From UHGV virus genome UHGV-1698782: a DNA stretch of 14,373 nt, one strand, 5' to 3'. Below, piece by piece: positions 1,324 through 2,947 of the stretch. Within the stretch, counting starts at the first letter, position 1. Each line of letters starts with the position of its first letter. Position numbers and translations under genes: made by a program. The notes beneath the pieces were generated by a model. It was not told the DNA's origin. It did not search any database and saw only the letters and a list, made by a program, of their open reading frames with translations. The stretch is from a virus.

Positions 1324-2000
1324 CGCCATTGCTCCCCAAATACAAAACCAATTTCAGCCAGTGCCACGTCCATTTTTTCGATGAACTCCGGCACCATCTC
1401 GTCAAAATTCGCCATGTACTTTTCATCCCGCTCGACCACGACATAATGCAGGCCTTCACGCTTCATACGTGGGTCGTAGTTGGCGAAGTACCAGGCGTCC
1501 TTGTCTGTAACCCACATGCTGAATTGCACCTGGGCCATGTAAGCAGGCTTGATAGCGTCAAAGCCGCCAAGCCGGAATTTCATGAAGTCGCGGGAAGTAA
1601 AAGGGCATTTAAGCTCAAGACCGTTACCGTCACTGCATAAACCATCGGGAGAGCAGGCGGTGCGCATGCTTTCGTCACGAAAAATTATTGGCGTTTCCGA
1701 GACGGTAACATCCGCGATAAATTCGAAGAGGGCACGGGCATCATCTTCGTATTGCTTTCCCCATGCGAGCGACTTAGCGTTAACTTCCGGTGCCACGCCA
1801 GTACAAACTTCAGCCAGCAGGGTGTGGAAGTATGACATTTTTGTATCAGGCCATTTGCTGCCTGAACGTGGTTTGGCTATGACGTTGTGAACTTCTGAAG
1901 CAGTGATAACACCGAGTCTCAGCTTGTGCCATCCATCATCGCCCTGGTCGAGGCTGGTAATATCCACGCCAGTTCGCTGGAGAATAATTTCTGGTGTCAT
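1320..2000 (-). CDS. exo: Lambda-type 5'-3' exonuclease (Red-alpha)
   Basis: 226 aa, near-identical in pattern to lambda Exo as I remember it ([11 protein letters not shown]...[28 protein letters not shown]...GFVFGEQWR); ATGA overlap with the upstream recombinase stop, as in lambda bet/exo. Confidence 0.95.
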
Positions 2001-2947
2001 GACACGGCCTCGCTGTTATTTTCCGTGGTGGCGTGAACTTTCGCTTCCGCCGTGGCCTTGTTTCTGGCAGCTTTCTTTTTGACAAAATCCAGCGTTTTGA
2101 CGGCTTCTTCCTGCGTGAGATCTTCATGTGATGCAATCGTGCGACGGAATGTTTTGGAACATACGGGGAGAAGGTCATCCCATTTCTTGTTGATTTCGGT
2201 GATTGCCTGAGTGATCTCATTGATAATCTCATCTGATGCGGGAGTGACGTCGCGCTCAGGGATGTGATCAGCATTCAGGATAATACCTTCACCGGCCTGA
2301 GTGTTCAGGTAGTCGATAGCTGTATCCAGGCGATCGCGACGGGGCCAGTATTTGCTGGCGCGTTTAACAATGGCTTTGCGGGCCATTTCATCGGGGAAAC
2401 TATCCCACGGGCTACTTCCTCCGTTATTTCCGGCTTTGCTGCACGCCCTGATGACCTCGATTTCCCTGTTGCTCATCTCTTCGGTCAGATAGTCGCCTTC
2501 GGATGTTTTTACGACACAATAACCGCCAATGCGTGCGCCCCTGTCTACGAATGGGTTGTATTTGTGCGTGGGGGCGCAGTCAATACCGTTGGACTCGTAA
2601 ATGTCCTTCTCGTAAACAAGTTTGCATTGCCCCCACTGAATGGCTCCTGTGACCTGTGCCAGATGCAGAAGCCCCATATAACTGATATCCAGGCATACAG
2701 CCTTTTTTCGTGGGACCAGATACGCCAGCTTGCTGGCCGGGTTCAGGGTTATGCCGATGGCGGCAACATTGATGATAGCGTTCTGTGCGCTGGGCAGATT
2801 TGCCCGTGCTGTGTCAGCCAGAAAGGCATTTTTCTGGAATTGCTGAATTGCAAACTGACTTTCCTTCGCCCATGTCAGCGTCGGTTCAGTTAATGCCTCG
2901 CAGAAAAAGCGCTCCTGCTGCTTAACAAATTCAACGATATCGAACAT
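1997..2947 (-). CDS. recT: RecT-family single-strand annealing recombinase with a Bet-like C-terminal tail
   Basis: Core contains RecT-like motifs ([27 protein letters not shown]); the C-terminal ~70 aa ([17 protein letters not shown]...[14 protein letters not shown]...[18 protein letters not shown]) resembles the lambda Bet C-terminus. Start set at the ATG at 2947 (MFDIVEF...), 17 nt after the upstream gene stop; the 3016 start in the track would overlap that gene. Confidence 0.85.

Follow-up and report, generated by a model that had tools for sequence, protein, structure and literature searches.

In phage λ, the annealing protein Redβ (Bet) contacts its exonuclease (Exo) through a C-terminal domain (CTD). 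In the structure of the complex (PDB 6M9K), a CTD pocket formed by L223, I227, F249 and L250, with Q226, R229, Q252, K253 and E256 around it, meets a ridge on helix E of Exo formed by T90, L91, F94 and T95, with Q83, D87, L184 and Y186 around the ridge (PMC6393309). Residues L223 and F249 of Bet and L91 and F94 of Exo were essential for complex formation, mutations of the CTD pocket abolished Exo binding, and the same group reported no significant homologues of the Redβ CTD (PMC6393309). In a 2025 survey of lambdoid Rec modules, the annealases of phages phi80, TL-2011c, HK140 and Edno5 were classed together as 'SAP type 4', working with Exo, with RecE or with no nuclease, and a shuffling of partner-interaction domains was guessed at without analysis (PMC12315714). 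The phi80 homologue promotes recombination in vivo (PMC3945230), and a 2026 paper described structurally diverse RecT C-termini in general terms (PMC13490951). Here, the annealase gene of the viral genome UHGV-1698782 was compared with these systems; 'the window' denotes the whole stretch of DNA analysed, 14,373 nucleotides (nt). The best explanation, which we regard as probable, is that the gene encodes the two-domain annealase of a λ-Red-like gamL-rec-exo module in a Shiga toxin (Stx)-type lambdoid prophage, with a CTD that would dock on the cognate Exo and would form one cassette with the exo gene. Architecture, homology, predicted fold, gene overlap, co-occurrence, co-divergence and interface co-variation were computed here, and we infer binding and the loading mechanism by homology to λ.

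Since the Pfam family RecT (PF03837) also matches λ Bet and cannot separate Bet from RecT, the NCBIfam subfamily models were used to classify the core. The window protein scored 86.6 bits on PF03837 (cutoff 24), and its core scored 66.5–67.1 bits on TIGR00616 (rect; cutoff 52.65), which places it in the RecT subfamily. Neither the whole protein nor the isolated core matched TIGR01913 (bet_lambda) at thresholds of 0.01 and 1, a model on which λ Bet scored 169.5 bits. By BLASTP, Rac RecT aligned with residues 56–202 at 33% identity (E=7e-20) and λ Bet with residues 178–300 (Bet 140–261) at 43% identity (E=1e-23), with no significant similarity between λ Bet and Rac RecT themselves and no BLAST similarity between the N-terminal domain of the window protein and Bet 1–139. 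Within the Bet match, residues 178–224 correspond to a motif common to the whole RecT/Bet superfamily, and the Bet-specific stretch is approximately residues 225–300. By its sequence, the window annealase is not an orthologue of Rac RecT; on the Rac RecT equivalog model NF007351 it reached 74.2 bits against a cutoff of 296. An AlphaFold2 model was built with 42 homologues and had a mean predicted local distance difference test (pLDDT) score of 80.8, with ~88 for the core. The best Foldseek match of the core in the PDB was LiRecT (7UB2, E=1.2e-6), where a TM-target of 0.51 indicates a moderate rather than a tight fit. Rad52 appeared weakly, and 7UJL, which PMC11611040 cites for the N-terminal domain of Redβ, was absent among the 50 matches listed.

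The Redβ CTD, for which no Pfam or NCBIfam model exists for comparison, was defined by PDB entries 6M9K and 8TFU. A phmmer search of the PDB returned only Redβ CTD chains (8TFU, E=1.3e-18; 6M9K, E=1.7e-14), which matched residues 225–299 of the window protein. E-values of this size, like those of the BLASTP alignments, lie far outside chance. The tail was predicted to form a bundle of three helices (residues 239–251, 256–267 and 279–314), and Foldseek superposed the model on 6M9K and 8TFU with a root-mean-square deviation of 0.7–0.9 Å, a TM-target of 0.87–0.93 and 52% identity. Between core and tail, residues 212–231 had pLDDT values below 50, and in relatives with a 72%-identical core the similarity ended after residue 219. 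In the Bet numbering, the pocket of the window protein consists of V223, T227, F249 and V250, compared with L223, I227, F249 and L250 in λ. The linker motif PERD[VI]TP (window 2251–2271, residues 226–232, HIPERDV…TP) is kept in λ Bet, phi80 Rec and the window protein, and was also seen in an unrelated, RecE-paired annealase without a CTD (Yersinia vB_YenM_29.18 and E. coli EC.W1-9; L158, L159). A role of the PERDVTP DNA as a universal recombination junction was considered and rejected: the motif is conserved mainly as protein, and the ERF and divergent-Bet hybrids described below lack it.

The pairwise alignments with Rac RecT and λ Bet and the domain mapping with profile hidden Markov models (HMMs) had been proposed as checks in an earlier reading of the sequence (the original prediction). 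Together they divided the protein into a core covered by TIGR00616 and PF03837 and a tail outside all Pfam and NCBIfam models, with Bet-specific similarity at the C-terminal end. The chimeric architecture of the original prediction was thereby confirmed at the level of alignment and modelled structure: in the annealase, a floppy linker connects a RecT-type core with a Redβ-type CTD. The Bet-like part, given there as the last ~70 residues, was placed here at approximately residues 225–300, and the final 16 residues (301–316) form an extension without counterpart in λ Bet. The protein could alternatively be a uniform RecT-family member that resembles Bet only through the signal shared by the RecT/Bet superfamily, given that PF03837 covers both and that part of the Bet match is the shared motif. 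However, the tail alone matched Redβ CTD structures at E=1e-18, lies beyond the family models and superposes on 6M9K at less than 1 Å, and an HMM of the CTD matched neither Rac RecT nor the relatives with an unrelated tail. The uniform alternative is refuted by these results and is given practically no credence.

The nuclease encoded downstream was identified as a λ-type Exo, again as predicted. BLASTP with λ Exo gave 86.7% identity across all 226 residues, the protein matched the Pfam family YqaJ (PF09588, E=2.9e-28), and residues D119, E129, K131, R28 and L78 were invariant in the Exo alignment, consistent with membership of the λ exonuclease family. We take D119, E129 and K131 to be the catalytic triad of λ Exo. 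For R28 and L78, roles in DNA handling have been described (PMC11611040). The differences between the two exonucleases were concentrated in the helix-E region (residues 83–103), with 8 of 21 residues differing there and 22 of 205 elsewhere (Fisher p=0.0023). At the nucleotide level, identity to λ was 58–72% at helix E and 80–98% in the flanking parts of exo. The helix-E signature is QDALFILY in the window and QDTLFTLY in λ.

To relate tail and nuclease, IMG/VR loci of the clade of the window RecT core were collected (55–100% identity over the matched segment), which carried several types of tail. When the CTD HMM was applied to 77 full-length relatives with 60–100% core identity, 54 had both the CTD and Exo, 23 had neither and none was discordant. 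The 54 include three apparent exceptions that were resolved, two with an intervening open reading frame (ORF) of 206 amino acids (aa) and one in which Exo was cut by the contig end. Tails of the λ-like kind (…LLP[VLI]CS…) were followed by an Exo 70–99% identical to that of the window or of λ, a divergent but alignable tail (…FISKKF…) by an Exo of ~57% identity, and the tail …ACKTLTGR… by an Exo of ~50% identity. An unrelated tail of ~85 aa (…GMKLQQNVQAIY…), on cores 60–73% identical to that of the window, was followed by a Sipho_Gp157 gene (PF05565), and no homologue of λ Exo or RecE was present within the flanks examined of these loci (n=25). In the sequences compared, the Redβ-type tail travels across many phages with the exonuclease gene and not with the core.

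Named phages followed the same lines. In Aeromonas phiA005 and Pseudomonas phage 15b, the unrelated tail comes with a Gp157 gene and without Exo; a divergent CTD accompanies an Exo of 39–41% identity in Vibrio 1.198.A, Marinomonas P12026 and Yersinia vB_YenM_12; and in Stenotrophomonas CUB19 no CTD was detected and the nuclease is a distant YqaJ protein (24% identical). The original prediction had taken RecE to be the normal partner of RecT. This needs correction: relatives of the window core pair with λ-Exo-clade nucleases (Vibrio, Marinomonas, Yersinia) or with the distant YqaJ nuclease (Stenotrophomonas), and RecT with a nuclease of the λ-Exo/YqaJ kind is widespread in this clade rather than unusual. 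A type-4 RecT core with RecE has been reported for phage Edno5 (PMC12315714). When this pairing was looked for here, the RecE-linked annealases of Yersinia vB_YenM_29.18 and E. coli EC.W1-9 belonged to another core family and had no CTD, and no recognisable annealase neighboured RecE in Vibrio 1.278.O.

In the relatives with the unrelated tail (L061–L084, L151, L153), the Sipho_Gp157-family gene (~160 aa) always came next and often overlapped the annealase stop (e.g. L074, 4881–5369); in phiA005 it was followed by a gene for SSB, the protein that binds single-stranded DNA. The unrelated tail and Sipho_Gp157 may represent a different tail-partner pairing. The ATGA overlap of annealase and exo was broken by an extra ORF in L050/L059 (4913–5533), where it encodes 206 aa without a Pfam match and the Exo match begins at residue 14, and in Yersinia phage vB_YenM_12 (L155, 3913–4401), where it is annotated as a homing endonuclease.

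Co-divergence was measured on 47 dereplicated annealase/Exo pairs. CTD distance correlated with Exo distance (Mantel r=0.87, p=2e-4) far more closely than with core distance (r=0.38), and the correlation with Exo persisted when the core was taken into account (partial r=0.88). The interface columns, comprising the residues named in PMC6393309, were then scored in 83 non-redundant pairs and formed matched CTD/Exo classes irrespective of the core type: a λ type (CTD LQIRFLQKE, Exo QDTLFTLY), a window type (CTD [VL]KTRFVKKR, Exo QDALFILY), a 'FISKKF' type (CTD FKKNMLKKG, Exo NEMTFYIY) and a fourth type (CTD ATLGSMRRN, Exo KA[FLM]LFEMS). In the window class, the changes I227T and L250V of Bet occurred together with T95I and T90A of Exo in 18 of 18 non-redundant pairs, and T95I was confined to this class among the 83. 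These paired changes of pocket and ridge suggest compensation.

The tail might also be read as a module for binding host SSB, tuned to the SSB of enterobacteria, with its association with λ-type Exo a matter of mere linkage and no conserved Exo interface. The λ CTD does bind the C-terminal peptide of SSB through a site that overlaps the Exo site (PMC6393309), as in PDB 8TFU, which the window tail matched. The CTD codons abut exo, and tails close to that of the window were found only in enterobacterial phages. The family is also rare by single-sequence phmmer, the tail having 20 matches in 1.84 billion representatives. A word-indexed protein search with the tail alone returned six E. coli fragments only and was uninformative. 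A 1065-aa repetitive protein (P0010) matched the tail at E=3e-12 through five short stretches and was set aside, as it looks like a low-complexity or repeat artefact rather than a homologue. Against the SSB alternative, the E. coli phages HK140, Kapi1 and mEpX1 share the host and have cores of ~60–73% identity, yet their tail is non-homologous and they have no Exo; IMG/VR contigs of unstated host show the same combination of related core, non-homologous tail and no Exo. Moreover, the pocket residues vary in step with helix E, which is the divergence hot spot of the window Exo. The C-terminal tail of SSB is essentially invariant in the enterobacterial hosts of these phages and therefore cannot drive the variation of the pocket. 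SSB binding as the sole role was considered unlikely, and by analogy with λ a dual role of the window CTD, in binding Exo and SSB, is likely. By its homology with the λ CTD, the tail is a predicted Exo-contact region, and Exo contact is not its only likely role.

In an Exo-first scan, one genome per GTDB species was searched with the Exo alignment and the gene upstream of each λ-Exo-clade nuclease was classified. The upstream cores comprised λ Bet, divergent Bet (TIGR01913, 282–286 aa), phi80-like RecT, window-like RecT, the ERF superfamily (PF04404; L113, L122 and L123, and also L085 and P0016) and two unclassified proteins of 257 and 213 aa. Every annealase found upstream of these nucleases had an alignable three-helix CTD at its end. 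The window RecT clade carried CTDs of all divergence classes (Exo 39–88% identical to λ), and Bet-type cores were seen only with the λ-like class, apart from one weakly Bet-like core with another class.

These distributions bear on whether a λ-like bet gene recently supplied the window tail to a RecT gene, in a one-off graft in this lineage. The tail of phi80 Rec is 74% identical to that of λ Bet and the two cores have no significant BLASTP match; Bet and RecT genes therefore do undergo exchange, and the window exo is itself 87% identical to that of λ. However, the window CTD is only ~52% identical to that of λ (55–60% at the nucleotide level) and most of exo is 80–98% identical, which is not what a recent graft from λ would leave. 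All the CTD divergence classes sit on the window RecT clade, where the CTD family is at its most diverse, and Bet cores are nearly confined to the λ-like class. A recent graft was accordingly held to be quite improbable. The sequence comparison points to an old association of the CTD with RecT cores, and λ Bet may have been the acquirer of the CTD rather than its donor.

The original prediction had proposed a tail matched to its nuclease by modular exchange. On comparative grounds this was strongly supported, by co-occurrence, co-divergence and interface co-variation over several unrelated cores. The term 'Bet-like' is, however, to be read as resemblance and not as descent. As a whole, the interpretation was partly supported, and the pattern is broader than was stated. 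In its widest form, the Redβ-type CTD with the λ-type Exo would be a portable adaptor-plus-nuclease cassette that can be plugged in behind essentially any Rad52-superfamily core (Bet, RecT, ERF and at least two unclassified ones) and has diversified into several matched, possibly orthogonal CTD/helix-E classes, λ Bet being one recipient and not the source. We judge this wider proposal to be about evenly balanced between right and wrong. If it is true, the CTD would offer a handle of general use that could be swapped to bring annealases together with new exonucleases.

Several points weigh against the interpretation of the window tail as a co-adapted Exo-docking domain within such a cassette. 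For the window pair, annealase–Exo binding and recombination rest on comparison and on homology to λ. Of the four pocket residues that had been mutated or described as essential in λ, two are changed in the window (I227T, L250V), and the interface could in principle be weakened rather than compensated. The pairing of position 227 with position 95 is a co-variation of columns, the contact itself being putative. Because the CTD codons and exo adjoin, linkage alone could yield both co-inheritance and co-divergence, and no more than a few independent events in evolution lie behind the co-varying classes. Finally, three GTDB Exo genes had no adjacent annealase (L108, L110, L111).

For the two-domain annealase of a Red-type module, the following mechanism is postulated. 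Single-stranded DNA would be bound and annealed by the N-terminal RecT-fold domain, to which the disordered linker would tether the three-helix CTD. In each subunit of the cognate λ-type Exo trimer, helix E would be the docking site for the hydrophobic groove of the CTD, and the annealase would so be loaded onto the nascent 3' overhang, after which the same groove would probably take the C-terminal tail of host SSB, as in the hand-off model for λ (PMC6393309, PMC11611040). As to evolution, the 3' end of the annealase gene, which codes for the CTD, would form one cassette with the overlapping exo, recombination in or near the linker would have brought this cassette repeatedly behind cores of different kinds (Bet, RecT, ERF and others), and the CTD–Exo interface would have diverged into matched classes.

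The coordinates of the module are collected in Table 1. The genes gamL, rec and exo are co-oriented on the minus strand, the gene layout of a Red-type (SynExo) two-component module with an anti-RecBCD gene. The annealase stop and the exo start share the sequence ATGA (1997–2000, a 4-nt overlap), and the exo ribosome-binding site GAGG (2008–2011) lies within the last annealase codons. The annealase start codon (ATG, 2947–2945) has AGGA 7 nt upstream and is separated from the gamL stop by 17 nt. A longer annealase ORF of 339 aa starting at 3016 was disfavoured as it overlaps gamL, and the public protein cluster of this sequence likewise has 316 aa.

Table 1. Features of the gamL-rec-exo module in the window, with the evidence for each
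Feature	Position	Strand	Evidence
Hybrid single-strand annealing protein gene (RecT-type core, linker and Redβ-type CTD)	1997..2947	(-)	316 aa; ORF, start site, Pfam PF03837, NCBIfam TIGR00616, PDB CTD matches, AlphaFold2/Foldseek
N-terminal RecT-fold annealing domain, ~aa 1-211	2315..2947	(-)	TIGR00616 score, Rac RecT identity, LiRecT structural match
Flexible linker with PERDVTP motif, ~aa 212-233	2249..2314	(-)	Low pLDDT; break between core and tail similarity in relatives
Redβ-type C-terminal three-helix domain, ~aa 234-300, predicted Exo- and SSB-docking module	2048..2248	(-)	8TFU/6M9K matches, Foldseek
16-residue C-terminal extension and stop codon of the annealase	1997..2047	(-)	Sequence reading; alignments with λ and phi80
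λ-type 5'-3' exonuclease, translationally coupled to the annealase	1320..2000	(-)	226 aa; λ Exo 86.7% identity, Pfam YqaJ
Exo helix-E region, aa 83-103, CTD-contacting surface in 6M9K	1692..1754	(-)	Local divergence hot spot relative to λ
GamL host-nuclease (RecBCD) inhibitor, first gene of gamL-rec-exo	2964..3245	(-)	NCBIfam NF033500 phi80_GamL, E=1.8e-44

The gene itself is ordinary, very common and already annotated. The rec-exo cassette is 98–99% identical in many Stx2a and Stx1a phages, including TL-2011c, P13374, PA2 and VT2phi_272, and 143 of 5426 complete E. coli genomes contain it. PGAP labels rec 'RecT family recombinase' and exo 'lambda exonuclease family protein', and the annealase protein cluster has 831 members named 'recombinase RecT'. 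Stx2a phages in which the match ended at residue 230 were examined as a possible natural tail swap, which was rejected, the cause being an insertion sequence (IS) in the linker. In L002 (LC727854.1, ~3690–5000), an IS3-family element with transposase ORFs of 108 and 212 aa splits a 99%-identical annealase gene after codon ~230, and further Stx2a phage records show this 690-bp match again. The insertion leaves a core without CTD and parts the annealase from the downstream genes, amounting to a natural CTD knock-out. A further set of bet-exo loci, with a Bet core identical to that of λ, lay on short or low-coverage GTDB contigs, some of ~48.5 kb (L086–L097, L119, L124, L125, L133, L138, L145, L148, L149), labelled Shewanella, Bradyrhizobium, Pseudomonas, Kitasatospora, Oceanobacillus, Nanosynbacter and others. 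The most likely source of these loci is λ DNA that entered as contamination or spike-in, not real prophages.

The window corresponds to the early region of an Stx-type (Oslovirus-like) lambdoid prophage, with genes for a Dam methylase, exo, rec, gamL, rha, a cI-like repressor, cro, a helicase, a primase, ninG and Q; kil is also named in the annotation of a homologous phage. Between rha and the repressor gene, 5727–6071 and 6359–7270 encode a HicB-family antitoxin-like protein and a ClpP/SDH-type serine protease-like protein. This slot holds variable cargo, as its equivalent in VT2phi_272, a related Stx phage, is occupied by a restriction-modification pair. The gene at 12107–12556 matched Pfam DUF1367 and not a NinB model, although the RefSeq label in a related phage is 'NinB/Orf homologous recombination mediator'. 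Because λ Orf has been reported to have the same fold as the Redβ CTD (PMC6393309), the window phage may, by analogy, carry two SSB-binding modules of this fold, the annealase tail and the product of this gene.

The hybrid architecture was already implicit in databases and had been anticipated in print. No description of the CTD–Exo cassette pattern or of the interface co-variation was found in the literature searched, which left out the phi80 genome paper (PMC3510586). For the sequence-level part of the question of whether the Redβ CTD has homologues and partner-interaction domains are shuffled, the locus and its relatives provide an answer: the Redβ CTD does occur on RecT and ERF cores, always accompanied by a λ-type Exo and with interface variants that match. 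The comparative pattern adds modestly, and in a testable way, to knowledge of the Red-type recombinases, and it suggests a practical route for re-pairing annealases and exonucleases in recombineering.

Of the known systems, Rac RecT/RecE shares with the window protein a core of the RecT subfamily (33% identity over ~150 residues), but Rac RecT has a short acidic C-terminus without a match to the CTD HMM, and its partner RecE is encoded upstream rather than downstream. The RecT proteins of HK140, Kapi1 and mEpX1 have the closest cores outside the window type (~60–73% identity, same fold family); they differ in the unrelated ~85-aa tail (…GMKLQQNVQAIY…), the lack of an exonuclease and the downstream Sipho_Gp157 gene, and have been called 'SAP type 4 without nuclease' (PMC12315714). 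The ERF-core annealases (P0016; L085, L113, L122, L123) resemble the window system at the other end of the protein, with a Redβ-type CTD, a 4-nt overlap and a λ-type Exo 67–80% identical to that of the window; their ERF core (PF04404) is unrelated in sequence to RecT, and their junction lacks PERDVTP.

The λ Redβ/Exo pair (6M9K; SSB complex 8TFU) has a homologous CTD (52% identity, model deviation <1 Å), an Exo of 87% identity and the same 4-nt overlap, and the loading and hand-off mechanism of the window module is presumably the same as that of λ. It differs in the N-terminal domain of Bet, which belongs to TIGR01913 (bet) and not to TIGR00616 (rect), and in the inhibitor, which is Gam rather than GamL. 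In phi80, the Rec (YP_007947959), Exo and GamL proteins are encoded in the same gamL-rec-exo order as in the window, with a RecT-type core, a Redβ-type CTD and a λ-type Exo downstream. Phi80 Rec is 54% identical overall to the window protein, and its CTD is λ-like (74% to Bet, pocket VQIRFL) and paired with a λ-like helix E, whereas in the window T227/V250 and A90/I95 make up a separate matched class, and the annealase bears the 16-aa C-terminal extension.

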